A DNA stretch of 64,000 nucleotides, taken from Candidatus Heimdallarchaeota archaeon (GTDB lineage: Archaea > Asgardarchaeota > Heimdallarchaeia > Hodarchaeales > Hodarchaeaceae). Under the pieces are notes generated by a model that saw only the letters and a program-made list of their open reading frames with translations, made no database searches and was not told the DNA's origin. Every line of letters starts with the position of its first letter. The stretch's first letter is position 1. A program made the position numbers and the translations under genes. This document shows positions 6,741-51,688 of this stretch, one piece after another. The stretch is from assembly GCA_020353515.1 (NCBI GenBank), contig CP070695.1, forward strand, positions 3,582,177-3,646,176, given 5' to 3'.

Positions 6741-8060
6741 TCATACAGGTCTCAAATTGCCCCATTTTTTTAAGGCCTTCTGAAGTTCAGGATGCGATTT
6801 AGCCTTCTCTTCGAGCGTGATTTCTTCTTGCCATGCCTCAATCGCTTGAACTGTGGCTTTGGTCCCTGCAGGAGTACCTCCAGGATGGCCATGAATACCT
6901 CCACCAACCTGTAGAACCATATCAGTGGTTCCATATACAGTTAGAACTTCTGGAAGAACTCCAGGGTGTAACCCACCAGAAGCTACAGGTAAGGTGGGTT
7001 TAATTTGACCCCATGTTTGCTCAAGTCTTCTACCCTTGTCTTCAGTAATTTCCTGTTTGAGAAGAAGATCTCTCATATCTAAAACGTCCTCCTTCGGACT
7101 ATCAAGCTTACCCACAACAGTTCCAATATGGATATTATCAACACCAATTAACCTCATCAATTTAGCTAAGAAGTACATACTTATACCATGCGTATAATGT
7201 TTAGTGAACGTTGCATGCATTGCACGATGTGCGTGTATAGCCATATCTAGATCGCCTGCCAGATTTCTAAGAGTCTGAACACTTGCAAATCCAGTTGTTA
7301 CGACATCAACCATGAAATATTTAAATCCATGATCATGAATAACCTTTGTACGGTTTTCCATCTCATGAGTTTCAGCAGTTACATTAATGAGTGCATCTTT
7401 TATTTCACCAGTTTCATTCTCGGCCTTATCTCTAACTTTTGCCATCTGTTCAACACGTTTCTCGAAAACATTAAATGATTGAGAGGTGAGGTTCTCATCG
7501 TCTTTAACCAAATCACCACCAGCGCTCCAAAAGTCCCAAGCTATTTCACAATGCTGTTCTACTGTCATACCAATCTTAGGTTTAGGGACGCATGCTAATA
7601 AGGGGCCTTCATTCTTTTTGAAGATCCGTTGAATTGCTTCAACTCCCATATGCGGCCCCTTTGATCCTTTAATATATTCTAAAGGAAGAGTCGCATCTAT
7701 TAGTCTCAAATTCTTAACAGCCTTCATACCAAAGATATTGCCAGCTATCCCAGACATTAGCTGAGGGATATTATCTTTTTCCCATAATATCAATGGATAA
7801 GCGATTTTTACTAAATGCTTATCATTCCAAAATGCCAATCCTCGCATATCAAATATACGATCATCTAATGTCTCTAAAGTGGTCCACGTACCAATAGAGG
7901 ATTCCGAAGCTAACCTCCCAATAGTGTCATCAATTGAAACTTCATCTGATTTATCAAAATAAAAAAGTGCAACCAAGTCTTTGTCTTTTGGTTGATAATC
8001 TCTCTTAATAAAATCGTGATACCATTCAATTTTCTCTTTTGTCATGATAAAACCTCTCAC
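6741..8060 (-). CDS. rbcL: Form III RuBisCO large subunit (likely start ATG 8045)
   Basis: SESSIGTW, AGNIFGMK, PKPKIG, DLVKDDEN, HAHRAMH, HIGTVVGKL, SGGLHPG, GGGIHGHP: all catalytic motifs present. Confidence 0.95.
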   Translation of the reverse strand: MRGFIMTKEKIEWYHDFIKRDYQPKDKDLVALFYFDKSDEVSIDDTIGRLASESSIGTWTTLETLDDRIFDMRGLAFWNDKHLVKIAYPLILWEKDNIPQLMSGIAGNIFGMKAVKNLRLIDATLPLEYIKGSKGPHMGVEAIQRIFKKNEGPLLACVPKPKIGMTVEQHCEIAWDFWSAGGDLVKDDENLTSQSFNVFEKRVEQMAKVRDKAENETGEIKDALINVTAETHEMENRTKVIHDHGFKYFMVDVVTTGFASVQTLRNLAGDLDMAIHAHRAMHATFTKHYTHGISMYFLAKLMRLIGVDNIHIGTVVGKLDSPKEDVLDMRDLLLKQEITEDKGRRLEQTWGQIKPTLPVASGGLHPGVLPEVLTVYGTTDMVLQVGGGIHGHPGGTPAGTKATVQAIEAWQEEITLEEKAKSHPELQKALKKWGNLRPV

Positions 8061-42875: not shown

Positions 42876-44615
42876 ATGGAAGAACAGATTTGGCATAAAT
42901 ATAAATGGCCTGAAACGGTCAAGAAATCCATAGAACCTTATCCAGATGAGCCCCTTTATAAAATACTTGAAAATACAGCAACAAAAAGTGGTGATCTCCC
43001 GTATCTAAAATTTATGGGAACCACAACAACCTTCGCAGAAACAGATACCATGGCAAACCAAGTGGCAAATTACCTCATAAAGCAAGGTGTGAAAAAAGGG
43101 GATAAAATTGCTATATTTCTACCCAATACTCCTCATTATCCAATAATTTTCTTTGGGATCTTGAAAGCTGGCGCAACTGCGGTTACCTGCAATCCCACTT
43201 ATACGTCAAATGAATTAAACTATCAACTGAAGGACTCAGAAGTAGTCATGGTTTTTGCGTTTGATCATGAGAGATTCGCTCCTTCTACTTACAAAGCGAT
43301 AAAAGGAACACAAGTCAAACATGTGGTCATTTGTCAGACGAAGGATTTCCTCCCTAAATTCAAAGCAATAATTGGAGGATTACTAGGAAAAGTCCCAAAA
43401 AGCCCGTTTTATGAAGAAGAAATCACTTCTTTCTTCTCAGAAATTCTTACCTATGAAACAACAAAGCCTAATGTGGAAATAAATCCCGATGAAGACTTAG
43501 CAGTGGTAATTTATACAGGGGGCACGACAGGTTTGCCAAAAGGAGTGATGTTATCTCATAAAAATGTCTACTCTAATGTCCTCCAAGCAGACGAATATGT
43601 CAGAGTCGAGATTGAAGAAGGAAAACCACAAAAGCTTCGATACGGAGAGGAAGTATATATTGGTGCCCTACCTTGGTATCATTCATATGGATTTACAATG
43701 ACAATGATTGGTGGCGCATTCTACGCTGCTACAGTTATACCAATTCCTGATCCGAGAGCTGGAAAACCTCCCCTCTCAGTTCTACTTGAAACTATTAATG
43801 ACCATAGAGTTACTGTGTTCCATGCTGTACCCGTCTTCTACACCGCAATTGTTAATCATCCAAATGTTGAAAAGTATGATCTAACATCTATTATAGGGTG
43901 TGGTTCTGGTGCTGCTCCTTTAGCTCCTGAAATAGCCAAAGAATTTGAAAGAGTTACGAAAGGAACGATCTATGAGGCTTATGGACTATCTGAAACATCC
44001 CCCCTTACTCACTTAAATCCAACAAATAAAAGAGATCGAAAATTTGGGACAGTTGGATTAGCAGTGCCTGATACTTATGTCAAAATTGTAGACCTAGATA
44101 CTGGATTACAAGAACAACCTTTAGGGGAAGATGGCGAAATCGCCCTTTCTGGCCCCCAAGTGATGAAAGGGTACTGGAAAAAGCCTGAGGAGACAGCAGA
44201 AGTCTTTCGTGAAATTGATGGAAGAAAGTATTTCCTCACTGGCGATATCGGACACCTCGAAGAAGAAGGATTCTTAGTGATTACTGATCGTAAGAAAGAT
44301 ATGGTGATTATAGGTGGTTTGAAGGCTTATCCTCGTGAAATCGAAGATATTCTGTATGAGAATCCAAAGGTCAAGTTGGCTGCAGTAATTGGACTACCAC
44401 GAGAAGATGATCCTGGTAACGAATATGTTGCAGCTTACCTCGTTCTTAAAGAGGGGGAAACAGCAACAGAAGAAGAAATTATAGAATGGTGTCGAGATCG
44501 AATGGCGGGGTACAAACGTCCAAGAAAAGTGGAGTTTCGTGACGATTTGCCCTTAAGTACTGTAGGTAAGGTCTTACGTAGAGTGATAAAAGAAGAAGAA
44601 TTAAAAGGAAAGTAA
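42876..44615 (+). CDS. Long-chain fatty acid--CoA ligase (FadD-like)
   Basis: YTGGTTGLPKG, AYGLSETSP, GPQVMKGYW, TGDIG, DRKKD, GKVLR. Confidence 0.93.
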   Translation: MEEQIWHKYKWPETVKKSIEPYPDEPLYKILENTATKSGDLPYLKFMGTTTTFAETDTMANQVANYLIKQGVKKGDKIAIFLPNTPHYPIIFFGILKAGATAVTCNPTYTSNELNYQLKDSEVVMVFAFDHERFAPSTYKAIKGTQVKHVVICQTKDFLPKFKAIIGGLLGKVPKSPFYEEEITSFFSEILTYETTKPNVEINPDEDLAVVIYTGGTTGLPKGVMLSHKNVYSNVLQADEYVRVEIEEGKPQKLRYGEEVYIGALPWYHSYGFTMTMIGGAFYAATVIPIPDPRAGKPPLSVLLETINDHRVTVFHAVPVFYTAIVNHPNVEKYDLTSIIGCGSGAAPLAPEIAKEFERVTKGTIYEAYGLSETSPLTHLNPTNKRDRKFGTVGLAVPDTYVKIVDLDTGLQEQPLGEDGEIALSGPQVMKGYWKKPEETAEVFREIDGRKYFLTGDIGHLEEEGFLVITDRKKDMVIIGGLKAYPREIEDILYENPKVKLAAVIGLPREDDPGNEYVAAYLVLKEGETATEEEIIEWCRDRMAGYKRPRKVEFRDDLPLSTVGKVLRRVIKEEELKGK

Positions 44616-44643
44616 TCTTTCCAAATATCTTCACCCTTTTTTT
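44616..44643 (+). terminator. Archaeal pyrimidine/poly-T terminator
   Basis: TCTTTCC...CACCCTTTTTTT directly after the stop. Confidence 0.5.
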
Positions 44644-44714
44644 CTAATGAGTATCTTGGGGAGTAGAAGATTGAAGAATATCTAAATAATAGTATTTTTA
44701 CTTCTGCAGATAGA

Positions 44715-45968
44715 TTGAATGAGAATAGATATGGAGCTAAAACAATGGAGAACAGAAAATTTCTCTTATTCTTAATGGATGGTGTTGGAGACCGTCCCAT
44801 ACATGAATTAAACGAGAAAACGCCACTAGAGGCGGCTAAGACACCAACAATGGACAAATTAGCACAAATAGGGATAACAGGACACTTACATACTATTGGA
44901 CGAGGAATTACTCCTGGAAGTGATACTGCACATCTAGCTTTATTTGGTTATAATCCTTACGATGTTTACACAGGTAGAGGCCCATTTGAGGCCGCGGGAA
45001 CAGATCTCCCTGTTAAACCAGGTGATATTGCCTTTCGTACAAACATGGCTACTATTAAGGATGAGATAATTGTTGATCGAAGAGCAGGTAGAATATCCAA
45101 AGGTACGGTAGAAATTGAGGAAGCTCTTAAGAATATTACAATAGAAGATGTTGAAACAATTTTTAAACTTGGGATCGATCATCGGGCCGCGTTAGTTTTA
45201 AGAGGTCCTGGTTTAGCAAGTGATGTAACTGGAAATGATCCAAAGATTGAGAATAAAAAACCAAAATCTATTATTGGCACAAGTCCAGAGGCTGAAAAGA
45301 CTGCACGAATATTGAAACAATACATCCGTCAAGCGTCTGAGATAATGGAAACTCTAGAGATCAACCAGAAAAGGATAGATGATAACAAGCTTCCAGCTAA
45401 TTATCTGTTAGTAAGAGGAGCTGGAAAAGCTCCACACTTAGAAAGCTTTCAAACTAAATATGGCATAACAGCTGATTGTGTGGCTGGTGGAGGATTATAC
45501 AAAGGTGTTGCTTCGATTTGTGGAATGAAGATTAATAATAACCATAAAGGTACCGGGGGTGTTCCTACTGATGTACCTTCGAAAGTCAAAGCAGCAATGA
45601 AATCGTTAGAGCGATCCCAGTTTGTCTTTTTGCATGTAAAGGGAACTGATAATTTCGGTCATGATAACAAACCTATTCAGAAAATGGAGTTCATCGATGA
45701 GATAGATCGAGCAATAGAGCCTATCTTAGATTTATTACCTGAAACTCTCATCTGTATCACAGGTGATCATAGCACTCCTTGTGTAATGAAGGATCATTCC
45801 TCTGATCCATTACCAGTATTGATGGTCGGTGAAGGAGTGCGACCAGATCAAGTAACTGAATTTGGTGAACGCCCAACAATGAGAGGTGGATTAGGACATA
45901 TGTTAGGTCAAGAAGTTATTTCTACCATGCTGGGTCTTGCTGGAAGGGTTCACAAATTTGGTGCTTAA
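44715..45968 (+). CDS. apgM: 2,3-bisphosphoglycerate-independent phosphoglycerate mutase (likely start ATG 44745)
   Basis: [39 protein letters not shown]. Confidence 0.93.
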
Positions 45969-46013
45969 GCATTACCTAAGTGTCCCATTTCCTCTTCCAT
46001 CAGGAGATTAATA

Positions 46014-46784
46014 ATGATTGAGATTAAGAAGTTAACGACTATAAAAGAATTTAAAAAAACTCTTGAGATCCAAAAAAGTGCATGGGGAGTCAGTGATGTA
46101 GAAGTCGATCCCCACTTTTTAATGACAAGAGTACAAAAGTTTGGAGGCTTACTTCAGGGACTTTTTGTTGAAGAGGAATGTGTTGGTTTTACCTATGGTA
46201 TTCTAGGAAAATGGCAGGGACACATCTTCTTCTTCTCGTACATGGCAGCAGTCATGAGGAAATACCAAGGGAGGGGATATGGATTTTTACTGAAGAAAGC
46301 TCAAAGAGAAGAAGTCATGAAAATGGGTTATAATATCATTCGTTGGAATTTTGATCCTTTGGAATCCCAAAATGCTTATTTCAACATTCACAGACTTGGA
46401 GTGATTAGCTCAGAATACGAACAGAATATTTATGGAGAGGGGGAAAGTGGACTTGACACAGGTCTCCCAACTGATCGATTACTTGTCACATGGAATTTAA
46501 CCTCTGAACGAGTGATTAAGAAGATGGAAAGAAAAGAAGAAAAGAATTTAGGGGTCATTCCCACATCAAAACTCGGTGAATTTAATGAGGAAATTGCTTA
46601 TATTGAAATTCCGAGAGATTTTCAGTCACTGAAAAAGGAAAATTTAAACCAAGCATATAACTGGAGAATGAAGACCCGTGACCAGTTTGAAGCTGCTTTT
46701 AGAATAGGTTTTGTCGTAGAAGAAATCGTTTTCTCTGAAGATCAACAAAAAATCTTCTATAAATTGATCAAGAGGGAAATGTGA
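46014..46784 (+). CDS. GNAT N-acyltransferase (COG3375-like; D-amino acid N-succinyltransferase candidate)
   Basis: GYGFLLKKAQR, WNFDPLESQNAYFN, PTDRLLVTW; 1 nt upstream of the NSAR/OSBS gene. Confidence 0.85.
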   Translation: MIEIKKLTTIKEFKKTLEIQKSAWGVSDVEVDPHFLMTRVQKFGGLLQGLFVEEECVGFTYGILGKWQGHIFFFSYMAAVMRKYQGRGYGFLLKKAQREEVMKMGYNIIRWNFDPLESQNAYFNIHRLGVISSEYEQNIYGEGESGLDTGLPTDRLLVTWNLTSERVIKKMERKEEKNLGVIPTSKLGEFNEEIAYIEIPRDFQSLKKENLNQAYNWRMKTRDQFEAAFRIGFVVEEIVFSEDQQKIFYKLIKREM

Positions 46785-46785
46785 A

Positions 46786-47910
46786 ATGAACCGTATTGAT
46801 CAAATCGACTCGATGGAATTATTTATCATCAAACTACCACTTGTAGAAGCTTTTGAAACCAGCCTCGGAGCTGAGACATACAAAGAAGCCCTTCTTTTAA
46901 AACTCAAATCTGAGGAAATAGCTGGATGGGGGGAATGTGTGGCATCTCCAGAACCTTTTTACAGTAGTGAAACTAATGAAACTGCCCTTCACATAATTCG
47001 GACGTTTTTACTTCCAGTAATTATGAAAATAAAGAATTTTTCACTTGACGAGGTTCTAAGAGCCTTCGAGAGGATTCGTGGCCATAATATGGCGAAAGCT
47101 ACTGTAGAGAATGCACTTCTTGATCTTCAAGCAAAAATGCAAGGTATCCCTCTTTATGAGCTCATTGGGGGGGAAAAAAGAGATATTATGTCAGGAATCA
47201 GTATCGGGATAAAAGAAGACACAGATGAACTTTTAGAATCTATTGGACAGGCGGTAAGGAAAAAGTATCACAGGATCAAAATTAAGATAAAAAAAGGAAA
47301 AGAACTTGAACCCTTAGCCAGAGTGAGAGAGAACTATCCAGATATCAAACTCATGGTTGATGCTAATGCTGATTATTCTATCGATGATCTTGAACTCCTT
47401 AAACAACTTGATGATTATGATCTAATGATGATCGAACAGCCCTTAGCATATGATGACATCTATTTTCATTCCATTATTCAAAAAGAGTTACAAACACCAA
47501 TTTGCCTTGATGAATCAATTGAGAGTCTCAATGATGTGAAAACAGCTATTAACTTAGGAAGTTGTCAAATTATTAATATCAAACAAGGACGAGTAGGAGG
47601 CATTTTGAGTGCAATAACTATTCAGAATTTTTGTTCAAGTAATGGCATCAAGGTCTGGTCTGGAGGTATGCTAGAAACGGGGATTGGCCGAGCCTTTAAC
47701 ATTCATTTACAAACGCTTCCTGGATTCACGTTACCTGGAGATACGTCTGAAACCTCCCGTTATTTCCAAGAGGATATTGTTGAACCTAATATTACGTTAC
47801 GTGGTGATGGCTTCATTGATATACCAGAAGGGGAAGGAATGGGGGTTCAAATTATCCCAGAAAGACTAGAACACTTCACAACCTTTTCTGAAAGGATTGA
47901 AACCAAGTAG
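46786..47910 (+). CDS. N-succinylamino acid racemase / o-succinylbenzoate synthase (enolase superfamily)
   Basis: RIKIKI, VDAN, IEQP, LDES, NIKQGRVGG, GMLETGIG, PGDTS. Confidence 0.9.
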   Translation: MNRIDQIDSMELFIIKLPLVEAFETSLGAETYKEALLLKLKSEEIAGWGECVASPEPFYSSETNETALHIIRTFLLPVIMKIKNFSLDEVLRAFERIRGHNMAKATVENALLDLQAKMQGIPLYELIGGEKRDIMSGISIGIKEDTDELLESIGQAVRKKYHRIKIKIKKGKELEPLARVRENYPDIKLMVDANADYSIDDLELLKQLDDYDLMMIEQPLAYDDIYFHSIIQKELQTPICLDESIESLNDVKTAINLGSCQIINIKQGRVGGILSAITIQNFCSSNGIKVWSGGMLETGIGRAFNIHLQTLPGFTLPGDTSETSRYFQEDIVEPNITLRGDGFIDIPEGEGMGVQIIPERLEHFTTFSERIETK

Positions 47911-47914
47911 TCGT

Positions 47915-49294
47915 CTATGTATCAAGGTATTTTATACCTGATTTACCCCATGAATCTAAGGCTTGTTCCAATTCAACGTACTGATCCTCATGGTCGTCTA
48001 AATAGTCTTCGAGATCCTCAGCTGCCTCATCCAAGTGAGTCATGCCAATATCAATCACCTGACGAAACGCCTTGGCACCTGCTCGAGTACCCTTGGGATG
48101 AGAATGAATACCCACACCAGCTCCAATCATAATATCATTGCCCAAATCCTTCATGATACGTAAAGCAATACCTGGGGTAACTCCTCCTGATGGCATAGGT
48201 AATACTGGTTTTAATGGACCAAAGGGATAACGAAGTGCTTTTGCACAGGCAAGATATTTATCTCGAATAAAGGGGGCTTTACTGTATGCACTGGGGTAGA
48301 CCAATGCATCAAGACCAGCTAACCGAGCAAGTTTCCCCATGATCAGAAAAGAAGAGATTCCAGACATTGAAGACTCATAATACACTCCAGCGAAATCCAT
48401 ATGCCCTAAAATAGGAACTTTGATACTCTCATCAGCAGCTAATTCCCGTACAACTGGAAGACCAACAGTGAGATAATTGACCATTAATCCATTAGTGCCA
48501 GAATCGATCGCTTTTTGGGCATTTTCTAAGATTTGTTGCGGACCTGCCGTTATATTAACCATATAGATCGTATCTTCACCCGTCTCCTCTTTTGCTTTGT
48601 CTCTCATTTCCATATAGGTAGTGACTCGTTCCTCTAGTGGTAAATACTTTATATCGCCAGCCGTACTTTCATCGTCCTTGATAAAATCGGCACCTCCCAT
48701 TGCTGCTTCATAAAACAAGGCTTTCCCATCATCCAAGGTGTAAGCATGATCAATATTTGTTAAGAAAGGTCGTTCTGGAACAGTTAGTTGTTTACGAATG
48801 CCTTCAATCCCAAATTTCGGTCCTTTGAATTCTGACAAAAAGCGTTGGGGGAAAATTACGTCTAAAAGTTTCACTTTGCCACCCATACTAATGTTTCCCA
48901 TGAGGGTAGTCAAAAGTAACGGAAACTGTGTATCTAATCCTTCAAGAGGATACGCCACTTGAAGAATATATTGGCGTTCTTTTATGCCATCGGGGACCCC
49001 AATTTCGTAAGGGGGTACTTCATATACTCCAATGACCTTACCAGAGAACTTTCGAAGGATATCACGGGGGTCACTATGTACAGGATAATAAGAACCAACA
49101 GTTTGCTCTTGAATAACAACCTTACCCATGTACCATGGGTCAAGAGTACTACTGAAAGCAGTATAGTAAACTCCAATCACATAATCATCATGATTGATAG
49201 ACTCTTGGCAACCCTCAGGGTAAAAACCCCACTTGCTATCCGCATAACTATCGACTTTAGGTCTTTTTACCATTTGTTGAGCCTCAAGATTCAC
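47915..49294 (-). CDS. RuBisCO-like protein (form IV, Archaeoglobus-type) lacking the K175/K177 loop; alternative start ATG 49273
   Basis: GNISMG, GPKFGIEG, DFIKDDE, GHMDFAG, PSGG, GVGIHSHP; loop reads PFLTNIDHAYT. Confidence 0.9.
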   Translation of the reverse strand: MNLEAQQMVKRPKVDSYADSKWGFYPEGCQESINHDDYVIGVYYTAFSSTLDPWYMGKVVIQEQTVGSYYPVHSDPRDILRKFSGKVIGVYEVPPYEIGVPDGIKERQYILQVAYPLEGLDTQFPLLLTTLMGNISMGGKVKLLDVIFPQRFLSEFKGPKFGIEGIRKQLTVPERPFLTNIDHAYTLDDGKALFYEAAMGGADFIKDDESTAGDIKYLPLEERVTTYMEMRDKAKEETGEDTIYMVNITAGPQQILENAQKAIDSGTNGLMVNYLTVGLPVVRELAADESIKVPILGHMDFAGVYYESSMSGISSFLIMGKLARLAGLDALVYPSAYSKAPFIRDKYLACAKALRYPFGPLKPVLPMPSGGVTPGIALRIMKDLGNDIMIGAGVGIHSHPKGTRAGAKAFRQVIDIGMTHLDEAAEDLEDYLDDHEDQYVELEQALDSWGKSGIKYLDT

Positions 49295-49357: not shown

Positions 49358-49696
49358 ATGAAAAAACAACTTTTTGTATTATTCAATTATAGCAAAGGGA
49401 TCTTTACTCATATTCTTTTGAATGTTTTCGATTTAGCTGAAAAAGGCTATGAGGTTGGTGTCATTTTTGAGAGTGAGGCATGTAAACTAATCGTCGAATA
49501 TGAAACAAAAAATTACGACAAATTTGAAAGATTAAAGACCCAAAACTTAGTTGCTGCTGTCTGTGAAGTCTGTGCAAGAGCAATGGGTGCCTTGGAAGCT
49601 GCTGAACGTCAGGGATTACCTATTGATGGTACATTACATGGCCACCCTACATTAGAATCTTGGATAAATGATGGATTTCAAGTTATGCTGATTTAA
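49358..49696 (+). CDS. DsrE/DsrF-like protein
   Basis: VIFESEA, AVCEVCARAMG, GHPTL, GFQVM. Confidence 0.75.
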   Translation: MKKQLFVLFNYSKGIFTHILLNVFDLAEKGYEVGVIFESEACKLIVEYETKNYDKFERLKTQNLVAAVCEVCARAMGALEAAERQGLPIDGTLHGHPTLESWINDGFQVMLI

Positions 49697-51688
49697 ATGA
49701 ATGACCATCGAATTCTCTATGGAGATGTACAAGCTAGCCTCTTCACATTAGAAGACAACAGTATCGACAGTGTAATCACATCTCCCCCATATTGGTCACA
49801 AAGAGATTATGGATTTGATGGTCAGATAGGAAATGAATCCACAAAAGAGGAATATCTAGCAAAACTAATCTCTATTTTCAACTTAATGCAAAGAAAATTA
49901 AAACCAGAGGGAAATTTTTACCTAAATATTGGTGATAAATATGTAAGTAGATATGGTAACACTCCATTAGCAATGATTCCTTATTTACTCGCATATTATC
50001 TGGTTACAGATGGATGGAACTTAGTGGATACGATAATCTGGTACAAACCAAATCATATGCCAGCACCAGTGAAAAATCGATTTACGAATACTTATGAGCC
50101 AATTTTTGTCTTCTCTCGTAATAAAAAAAATTATTATTCTGAATACAATCAAAAGGTGAGTATTTCTAACATTTTAAAGATTCCTCTCCAACCTGTTCCT
50201 TATAAGCATATGGCTACTTATCCTGAAAAACTTGTTGAAACCTTATTAGGATTTGGCCTTCCTAATGATGCACTAGTACTCGATCCATTTGCAGGTTCAG
50301 GAACTACCTGCAAAGCAGTCCAAAAAATATCTGAGGGGTACTTTAATCCAATAAAAATGCGCTCAATCATGATTGAAGCCTATAAATACTATGTGAAGAT
50401 CATTAAACAACGATGTCAAATCAAAAGGAAAGATATTCGGAAACTCTCTTTTCAACCTTATCATATTCACCCCCTTGCAGACAACTTTGTTATTCCAGAA
50501 GTAGAGAAGAAAATTCCTGATGAAACCAACATTGAACCTGATAATGTGATCATCAAGGTATTTCAAGAGCCAGCAAATTTTCATTCGTTCTTTCCCCTTC
50601 TATTTAGTGATAGTCTTGCAAATATTCTAGATGACGACGGTGTTCTTTTCCTTGGATTACCAAATCACGATATCAAAGAGATTTTTTCTATCGCTCAACT
50701 GAATAATCACGGTTGGGTCATTCGTAATATGATTGTTGTGCCTCGAGGACATGATTGGATTCCAATCTTCATGTTAGTCAAAGATATAAAATCTGTACAA
50801 TATAAATTCAATCTTGATAATATTAGGGTTGCACATCAATTCGAGATTACAGAGAATTGGGAGGAGGTTGATTTCATTGGTTATCGTGTTGAAAAGGCCC
50901 CTGTACTGTATAAAAATGCAGATACAGGTCTTATTGGTAAAGTTCTTTCGCATCATCCTAATGGACTACCCCATTGGGTTGTTGTTAAGTGGAAATCAGG
51001 AAAATATTCTCTGGAAGAAGTCATTAATACTTCTGGAAAAGTAAACACGATCAAACTATACTGTCCAGCATGTGAAGCCGAATTAAAAAAATTTCACCAT
51101 TACAAGGAATCTGTTTCCTGTCCTTCGTGTTCTTTAGGATTATGGCAAGATATGAATAGTATTCCCAAACTTCTAGAAGTCAATCCGTGCGTTAAACCTG
51201 AATATCTTCACAATGAATTCATGATCAAAGAGAAAGATACTAGAAAGGACTACGAAGGAAAATTCAAAGATGTTGAGAGACAAAATATTGGACAATCTCC
51301 AGGAGCAAGAGTCTCTGTTGAGGAACAATTTTTTACTGTGAAACGGTACTATAATGTAAAGCAAAGCATGATTTCTGACTATCTCAATCTTCACAGGATT
51401 AATAATGGTTTTACAAAAAATGAATTAACAAAGAAGTATCCTCCTGAGTATAAACATACTGTGGGCCATTGGTTACGGAAAGATATGGGGGGTTCTCTCC
51501 CAAAATATGAAGATCTAATGAAGCTAGATGAACTTCTTCACTTAGATCAATCCTATATCAACTATATAAGTAGAACAGGATTGAAACTTCAGACTGTTAT
51601 GGCAGATACAAAAGGAAAGAATCCAGGAGACTTTCTTGATCTTCCATTACCGAAAGTGATCAACATGCTAAAACAAGTGGGAGAATAA
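49697..51688 (+). CDS. Beta-class DNA methyltransferase with degenerate second MTase module, Zn ribbon and HTH
   Basis: TSPPY and DPFAGSGTT in the N-terminal half; CPAC/CPSC, HTVGHWLRKD and GKNPGD in the C-terminal half. Confidence 0.85.
   Translation: MNDHRILYGDVQASLFTLEDNSIDSVITSPPYWSQRDYGFDGQIGNESTKEEYLAKLISIFNLMQRKLKPEGNFYLNIGDKYVSRYGNTPLAMIPYLLAYYLVTDGWNLVDTIIWYKPNHMPAPVKNRFTNTYEPIFVFSRNKKNYYSEYNQKVSISNILKIPLQPVPYKHMATYPEKLVETLLGFGLPNDALVLDPFAGSGTTCKAVQKISEGYFNPIKMRSIMIEAYKYYVKIIKQRCQIKRKDIRKLSFQPYHIHPLADNFVIPEVEKKIPDETNIEPDNVIIKVFQEPANFHSFFPLLFSDSLANILDDDGVLFLGLPNHDIKEIFSIAQLNNHGWVIRNMIVVPRGHDWIPIFMLVKDIKSVQYKFNLDNIRVAHQFEITENWEEVDFIGYRVEKAPVLYKNADTGLIGKVLSHHPNGLPHWVVVKWKSGKYSLEEVINTSGKVNTIKLYCPACEAELKKFHHYKESVSCPSCSLGLWQDMNSIPKLLEVNPCVKPEYLHNEFMIKEKDTRKDYEGKFKDVERQNIGQSPGARVSVEEQFFTVKRYYNVKQSMISDYLNLHRINNGFTKNELTKKYPPEYKHTVGHWLRKDMGGSLPKYEDLMKLDELLHLDQSYINYISRTGLKLQTVMADTKGKNPGDFLDLPLPKVINMLKQVGE

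Follow-up and report, generated by a model that had tools for sequence, protein, structure and literature searches.

A Hodarchaeales RuBisCO-like protein with histidine at the Lys175 position and an altered P1-phosphate site: a candidate enolase/isomerase-type enzyme with a changed substrate

RuBisCO-like proteins (RLPs) are a classic example of a single active-site scaffold put to several uses in enolate chemistry, and the assignment of a function to each further RLP clade has, to our knowledge, revealed a new pathway. In RuBisCO itself the metal is held by K201 (carbamylated), D203, and E204, and K175 serves as an acid/base on O2/C2; the P1-phosphate pocket is built from T65, W66, G381, G403, and G404, and the P2 pocket from R295 and H327. 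The genome of Candidatus Heimdallarchaeota archaeon, an Asgard archaeon (single contig, 4.94 Mb, 96% complete), encodes an RLP with histidine in place of K175. The gene lies at 47915..49294 on the minus strand of the analyzed 64,000-nucleotide stretch of contig CP070695.1, hereafter called the window. The question raised by this locus is whether such a protein is still an enzyme and, if it is, whether it acts on the same substrate as its lysine-bearing relatives. In our view, held with a probability of about 0.55, it is a neofunctionalized and still catalytic RLP of the enolase/isomerase type, whose substrate differs from that of its K175-bearing sister.

The reading frame is intact and encodes 459 amino acids when counted from GTG. 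Its orthologs are 451-453 amino acids long, a TAA stands immediately upstream in three of these, and a TATA-like box, ATATTTAAG, precedes the ATG at 49273 by ~35-45 nt; on these three grounds the true start is probably Met8, which would give a coding sequence of 47915-49273 and a protein of 452 amino acids. Residue numbers refer to the 459-aa GTG form, in which His183 corresponds to residue 176 counted from Met8, and RuBisCO positions follow the spinach numbering. The motif coordinates, confirmed by translation, are as follows.

47915..49294, minus strand: RLP open reading frame, 459 aa from GTG; probable coding sequence 47915-49273
49088..49108, minus strand: N-domain active-site loop EQTVGSY; E63 (= E60) kept, S68 (= T65) and Y69 (= W66) changed
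48893..48895, minus strand: Asn134 (= N123), kept; the 2,3-diketo-5-methylthiopentyl-1-phosphate (DK-MTP-1-P) enolases have their catalytic Lys at the same position
48737..48772, minus strand: end of strand beta-1 and shortened loop, RPFLTNIDHAYT, from alignments and the AlphaFold2 model (strand 177-182, helix 187-199)
48746-48748, minus strand: His183, aligned with K175; loop shortened by loss of P176, residue 177, and a third residue, with Ala184 in place of G179
48668..48679, minus strand: KDDE; K206 = K201, D208 = D203, E209 = E204
48401..48403, minus strand: His298 (= H294), kept; adjoining Met299 in place of R295
48278..48280, minus strand: Lys339 (= loop-6 K334, in YSKAP), kept; Val332 upstream in place of H327
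48095..48118, minus strand: GVGIHSHP; Val394 in place of G404 in the GGG P1-phosphate loop
47984..48031, minus strand: acidic C-terminal insertion DEAAEDLEDYLDDHED, common to K175-bearing Heimdall paralogs and lacking in form III and distant RLPs

Membership in the RuBisCO superfamily is supported by both large-subunit Pfam domains, which score above their gathering thresholds: PF00016 with 111.5 bits (cut-off 30.1) and PF02788 with 21.4 bits (cut-off 20.7); RuBisCO_large is matched at E 6e-32, and RuBisCO_large_N is matched as well. The window also encodes its own form III RuBisCO (6741..8060, minus strand; TIGR03326, 540 bits, above cut-off). In both BLASTP and MAFFT alignments, the form III segment PLLACVPKPKIGMT pairs with PFLTNIDH---AYT of the RLP, ESSIGTW with EQTVGSY, and GGGIHGHP with GVGIHSHP, and the RLP retains KDDE, His298, and Lys339. 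The open reading frame and all of these loop and motif differences had been reported in a preliminary description of the locus, and BLASTP, MAFFT, and translation reproduced every one of them. A carboxylating RuBisCO of forms I-III was considered and rejected: K175, K177, R295, H327, T65, W66, and the GGG motif are all substituted or deleted, and the TIGR03326 score is 202.6 against a cut-off of 497. With K201-D203-E204 kept and RuBP-binding and catalytic residues substituted, the protein is, as judged from its sequence, a form IV RLP and not a carboxylase.

A search of 5.8 billion proteins provided 21 further ortholog clusters with 66-94% identity to the window RLP; together with the latter they are called here the His clade. 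The named homologs derive from metagenome-assembled genomes of Heimdallarchaeota, Hodarchaeales, or 'Promethearchaeota'. In 22 of 22 clusters, (A/S/T)(Y/F) comes immediately after the motif N(I/V)(D/N)H, and the three-residue gap is the same, whereas related K175-bearing RLPs read NNMIKPC(S/T)G where the window RLP has NIDH-AY. The assignment of His183 to the K175 column is further supported by phmmer against PDB chains, where IFKG of the Geobacillus kaustophilus enolase pairs with IDHA. The earlier suggestion that Asp and His jointly replace the lysine holds for the histidine, which is invariant, and was overstated for the preceding residue (D in 15 clusters, N in 7).

The nucleotide data are those of a constrained gene. 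Both CAT and CAC are used for the histidine across 14 independent DNA sequences, and neighboring codons vary synonymously. The ratio of nonsynonymous to synonymous substitution rates (dN/dS) is 0.026-0.049 at dS 0.9-1.5 (pairwise Nei-Gojobori, closer orthologs of the His form). The K175-bearing paralog gives ~0.05 in the same genome pairs, and the His form is thus as constrained or more so. Conservation of the loop in orthologs under purifying selection, named in the preliminary description as a check, is therefore borne out, and the change is not unique to one assembly. A sequencing or assembly artifact, or a decaying pseudogene, can be dismissed almost entirely, given the intact frame, the recurrence of the loop in 22 clusters from independent assemblies and in 11 genomes, and dN/dS of ~0.03-0.05.

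To place the substitution within the superfamily, the RLP was scored against 1.84 billion cluster representatives (50% clusters), and the best 150 were aligned with L-INS-i. A residue occupies the K175 column in 142 of them: Lys in 130, which agrees with the near-invariance asserted for K175 beforehand, Arg in 4, and His in 3, the remaining 5 being degenerate proteins most of which lack further catalytic residues as well (for example K201, D203, or H294). All three His entries belong to the His clade. Pro176 (124 sequences) and Gly179 (133) are conserved almost as strongly as K175, and both are lost in the His clade, where the K-P-x-x-G turn is replaced by H-A. Membership in the K175-bearing, NNMIKPC-type clade was also considered and rejected, as NNMIKPC(S/T)G, EQSTGTW, and GGGIHAHP are all altered in 22/22 His-clade members. 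Full-text literature searches found no description of the His clade or of an RLP with His175. On these alignments, the His clade is a new subclade of RLPs, set apart by a core substitution without precedent.

The active-site residues of the 22 His-clade clusters were compared with those of 31 K175-bearing relatives. E60, N123, K201, D202, E204, H294, K334, G380, G381, and G403 are invariant in 22/22 clusters. Another set of positions, invariant in the 31 relatives, is switched only in the His clade: T65 to Ser, W66 to Tyr or Phe, the Met equivalent to T173 to Ile, I174 to Asp or Asn, K175 to His, G179 to Ala, and G404 to Val, Ser, Ala, or Thr. R295 (Met) and H327 (Val) are already replaced across the whole wider RLP clade. 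Considering the known roles of these residues in RuBisCO, it is K175 and the P1 pocket that have changed, whereas the enolization core is untouched. The altered P1-phosphate site recognized earlier is thus a clade-specific trait (positions 65, 66, and 404), and it would be in keeping with a substrate that has another P1 handle or none at all. A compensating barrel lysine was sought among the clade-specific basic residues and none was found, K/R77 of the N-domain being the sole such residue. The following variation was also recorded: P0015, P0019, and P0020 of the His clade read KDNE rather than KDDE, and all three have Asn at the Asp182 position; Asn182 together with KDDE occurs in other His-clade members. 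The K177 position is Cys (KPC) in 28/31 K175-bearing RLPs and is deleted in the His clade.

In a confident AlphaFold2 model of the RLP (predicted local distance difference test score 91.2, predicted TM-score 0.89), His183 lies where strand beta-1 of the barrel reaches its C-terminal end, the place of K175 in the family. The top Foldseek matches of this model are all RuBisCO or RLP chains, with the DK-MTP-1-P enolases 2zvi and 2oek first (TM 0.79/0.91).

In a maximum-likelihood tree of 55 sequences, the His clade is monophyletic (SH-aLRT 100), and its stem of 0.44 substitutions per site compares with 0.08-0.13 for neighboring stems. The best tree groups it with the K175-bearing Heimdall clade, weakly (support 64). 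The acidic insertion DEAAEDLEDYLDDHED is common to the His form and the K175-bearing Heimdall paralogs, and more distant RLPs are without it. The weak grouping and the common insertion together support a duplication within the Heimdall/Hodarchaeales lineage. The insertion, which the preliminary description had singled out, is therefore real in comparison with form III but not peculiar to the His form.

In a set of 301 Asgard genomes, the His form turned up in a single GTDB genus, that of the window genome, where 12 of 21 genomes have it; 16 genomes of this genus have the K175 form, and 9 have both. The window genome has three family members, namely form III, the His form, and the K175 form, and a K175-containing paralog, which the preliminary description had proposed to look for, is thus present at ~4.20 Mb.

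G000:C1 (window genome) ~4199433-4200788 (L003 1123-2478), minus strand: K175-bearing RLP paralog, 451 aa, with NNMIKPCSGW, EQSTGTW, and GGGIHAHP

Two other genomes have a different complement. In G244 (CP070760.1; a single 3.16-Mb contig) the His form is the only RuBisCO-family gene, and G253 (95% complete) has form III and the His form without the K175 paralog. As the His form occurs alone in G244, it has no obligatory partner within the family.

The wider clade of K175-bearing RLPs often occurs in a cassette of genes for Sacchrp_dh (a saccharopine-dehydrogenase-like oxidoreductase), RLP, and an FGGY sugar kinase (Hadarchaeales and several Asgard families).

L076 4766-8808; L077 2266-7314; Asgard loci L056, L057, L059, L064, and L065: Sacchrp_dh-RLP-FGGY cassette

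This cassette looks like an uncharacterized sugar or polyol phosphate pathway and fits a phosphorylated substrate bound via an intact P1 pocket. We know of no assigned function for the wider clade, and literature searches found none. In the loci examined, the Sacchrp_dh and FGGY-kinase neighbors never stand next to the His form. The window genome also carries an adjacent pair of Sacchrp_dh-like and FGGY kinase genes at G000:C1:2856599-2859393, with no RLP beside it.

Diverged orthologs of the His form have differing neighbors, and the sole recurrent one is a prenyltransferase of the UbiA family. In L045, L006, and L078 it immediately follows the His form in the same orientation, in L069 it is part of a divergent SDR-UbiA pair (SDR, short-chain dehydrogenase/reductase), and in L047 it is two genes away from the His form; these five loci cover all three subclades of the His clade. 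An extended SDR (HpnA/OleD-like) accompanies UbiA in two arrangements; the SDR gene of the window genome is at G000:C1:2391950-2392936.

L045 3142-4095; L006 9377-10363; L069 2256-3209; G000:C1:2124656-2125597: UbiA prenyltransferase

This UbiA orthogroup comprises 30 proteins in the 5.8 billion searched, all of Hodarchaeales type; its best NCBIfam match is PRK12884, below the cut-off. Within the genus, UbiA is present in 11/12 genomes with the His form and in 1/10 without it.

Taken together, these observations lead us to the following model. A paralog that arose by RLP duplication within the Heimdall/Hodarchaeales lineage would have retained the machinery for enolization (Lys206, Asp208, Glu209, His298, and Lys339, plus Asn134 and Glu63 from the partner subunit). 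Acting as a predicted homodimer, independently of other RuBisCO-family proteins, it would abstract a proton next to a carbonyl and stabilize the enediolate at the metal, with the invariant His183, on a loop three residues shorter, presumably serving as acid/base in the place of Lys175. As the P1 pocket is rebuilt and the P2 pocket (R295, H327) absent, the substrate is expected to be neither RuBP nor DK-MTP-1-P; it would probably be without a simple phosphate monoester at the P1 end, unlike the monophosphate ester presumed for the K175-bearing sister. The UbiA neighbor, sometimes with an extended SDR, may hint at synthesis or modification of an isoprenoid-linked compound, and is taken here as a lead only.

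Several observations weigh against this model. Histidine could be a conservative substitute for the lysine, with no effect on the reaction catalyzed. At D203, 19 of the 22 His-clade clusters have Asp and 3 have Asn; these three orthologs, together with the drifting GGG loop, could equally reflect relaxed constraint on catalysis. The RLP gene of the window is monocistronic and has no informative neighbors. The association with UbiA is also open to objection: in the window genome UbiA lies at 2.12 Mb, 1.5 Mb from the RLP gene and beside PAC2/CDC48; a UbiA of the same orthogroup is found three genes from a basal K175-bearing RLP, P0027 (by accession numbers, on a 13.4-kb contig), and UbiA may therefore not be specific to the His form; and the co-occurrence was recorded among close kin of one genus, so that common descent is a confounder and only a few evolutionary events may lie behind it.

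The alternatives differ in how much of the ancestral function they retain. It is unlikely that the His form is an isofunctional duplicate, in which histidine is an alternative acid/base for the same reaction as in the K175 paralog and the two copies differ in regulation, pH optimum, or expression. This explanation would account for the identity of the metal triad, H294, K334, N123, and E60 in both forms, for the common acidic insertion and the weak grouping in the tree (support 64), and for the genomes G244 and G253, which carry the His form without the K175 paralog as if one replaces the other. However, the changes are concentrated at substrate contacts (T65, W66, G404, and the 175-179 loop) that do not vary among the 31 relatives, the stem is long (0.44), both copies are under strong purifying selection in 9 genomes, and the ancestral Sacchrp_dh/FGGY-kinase context never adjoins the His form. 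At the other extreme, the protein might have lost turnover altogether and kept its fold as a ligand-binding, regulatory, or scaffolding protein, which we regard as quite unlikely. The loss of a near-universal catalytic lysine, Asn at D203 in 3/22 clusters, the drift of the GGG loop, and a monocistronic gene with no pathway context in the window are what would be expected of such a pseudoenzyme. Against it stand the invariance of K201, E204, H294, K334, N123, and E60 in 22 clusters, a replacement histidine that is itself invariant and a competent acid/base, and dN/dS of 0.03-0.05, as low as or lower than that of the K175 paralog in the same genome pairs; nor is the protein an obligate partner of another RuBisCO-family protein. 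The non-catalytic subunit contemplated in the preliminary description is disfavored on the same grounds, with D203 of the metal triad also kept in most clusters and G244 having the His form alone.

The automatic ortholog naming at JGI points to yet another function, that of DK-MTP-1-P enolase (MtnW) in methionine salvage, and MtnW proteins are indeed the highest-ranking sequence matches of the RLP in NCBIfam and PDB. This assignment is very improbable. The scores are under both equivalog cut-offs (NF007095, 310.6 vs 409; TIGR03332, 260.5 vs 513.6). In the 2oek alignment, the enolase catalytic Lys at the N123 position is replaced by Asn134 (GK pairs with GN), and the K175-equivalent Lys (IFKG) by His183 (IDHA). 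Work by Imker and co-workers in 2007 is said to have identified Lys98 of the G. kaustophilus enolase as the catalytic Lys at this N123-equivalent position. Neither acireductone dioxygenase (ARD, PF03079) nor MtnK (TIGR01767) was found in the 96%-complete, single-contig genome, which has three IF-2B family genes. A role in methionine salvage was rejected on the basis of residues, scores, and the missing ARD and MtnK. A bolder extension of the model of a neofunctionalized enzyme is a new reaction class, in which the histidine would act as acid/base, the P1 pocket would accept a phosphodiester, a prenyl-linked, or an unphosphorylated keto compound, and UbiA and the SDR would take part in making a Hodarchaeales-specific isoprenoid-linked metabolite; we consider this idea doubtful at present and put it forward as speculation.

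Whichever substrate it has, the His clade is a natural experiment on the role of Lys175, a residue present in 92% of the sampled representatives and replaced here by histidine under strong purifying selection. The occurrence of K175-bearing and His-bearing paralogs within one genome offers a ready-made comparison for enzymology.

The surroundings of the gene in the window can be described briefly. The RLP gene is divergent from a DsrE-like gene and convergent with a gene of the OSBS/NSAR type (o-succinylbenzoate synthase/N-succinylamino-acid racemase). The window neighbors (DsrE-like/methylase, OSBS/NSAR-type, 256-aa gene, apgM, and acyl-CoA ligase) are kept only beside orthologs of 88-94% identity; they are therefore given no functional weight and were rejected as clues, being plain synteny, as was the PAC2/CDC48 context of UbiA in the window genome, which is uninformative. 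The individual features observed are listed below.

49358-51688, plus strand: 112-aa DsrE-like gene abutting a 663-aa N4/N6 DNA methylase gene (49696/49697, no gap); the two remain joined in relatives, even in L043, where two genes separate them from the RLP gene
42876-47910, plus strand: run of four genes for a long-chain acyl-CoA ligase-like protein, ApgM (archaeal cofactor-independent phosphoglycerate mutase), a 256-aa protein, and an OSBS/NSAR-type enolase (TIGR01928, 357 bits), the last two nearly contiguous (46784/46786)
6741-8060, minus strand: form III RuBisCO gene, adjoining an AlkZ-like DNA glycosylase gene

No family match was found for the 256-aa protein; its pairing with the OSBS-type gene recalls what we take to be the arrangement of N-succinyl-amino-acid racemase operons in Geobacillus. 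The G+C content of the window is ~31-40%. At the RLP loci of G244 (L005 and L044), flanking genes for adenylosuccinate lyase (218-259 aa) and polyprenyl synthetase (171-206 aa) were called as short fragments, which may be pseudogenes or split genes.

Among the known systems compared here, the K175-bearing Heimdall paralog is 53% identical and has the same E60, N123, K201, D203, E204, H294, K334, M295, V327, and acidic insertion; it differs in keeping NNMIKPCSGW, EQSTGTW, and GGGIHAHP, and within the genus it has a context of its own, with ThiS/Urm1-like and AMP-binding genes. The wider archaeal and bacterial RLP clade (Hadarchaeales, Theionarchaea, other Asgard, and Caldisericia) has the same catalytic core at 45-50% identity and differs from the His form in having K175, an intact P1 pocket, and a conserved Cys in place of K177, and in lacking the acidic insertion. 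The DK-MTP-1-P enolases of G. kaustophilus and Bacillus subtilis (MtnW/YkrW; 2oek/2oem and 2zvi) are the closest solved structures (E 1e-66, ~32% identity); the two-domain fold, KDDE, H294, and the SGG motif are common to both, and the R295/H327 P2 site is absent in both, whereas the RLP has a shorter K175 loop, GVG in place of GGG, and SY in place of TW. The form III RuBisCO of the window is 30% identical over 369 residues and has K201, D203, E204, H294, K334, N123, and E60 in common with the RLP, but it keeps K175, K177, R295, H327, T65/W66, and GGG, all of which the RLP is without. Finally, the putative route linking the RLP with UbiA and SDR would bear a loose resemblance to the way UbiA and SDR enzymes are combined in the decaprenyl-phospho-arabinose pathway.

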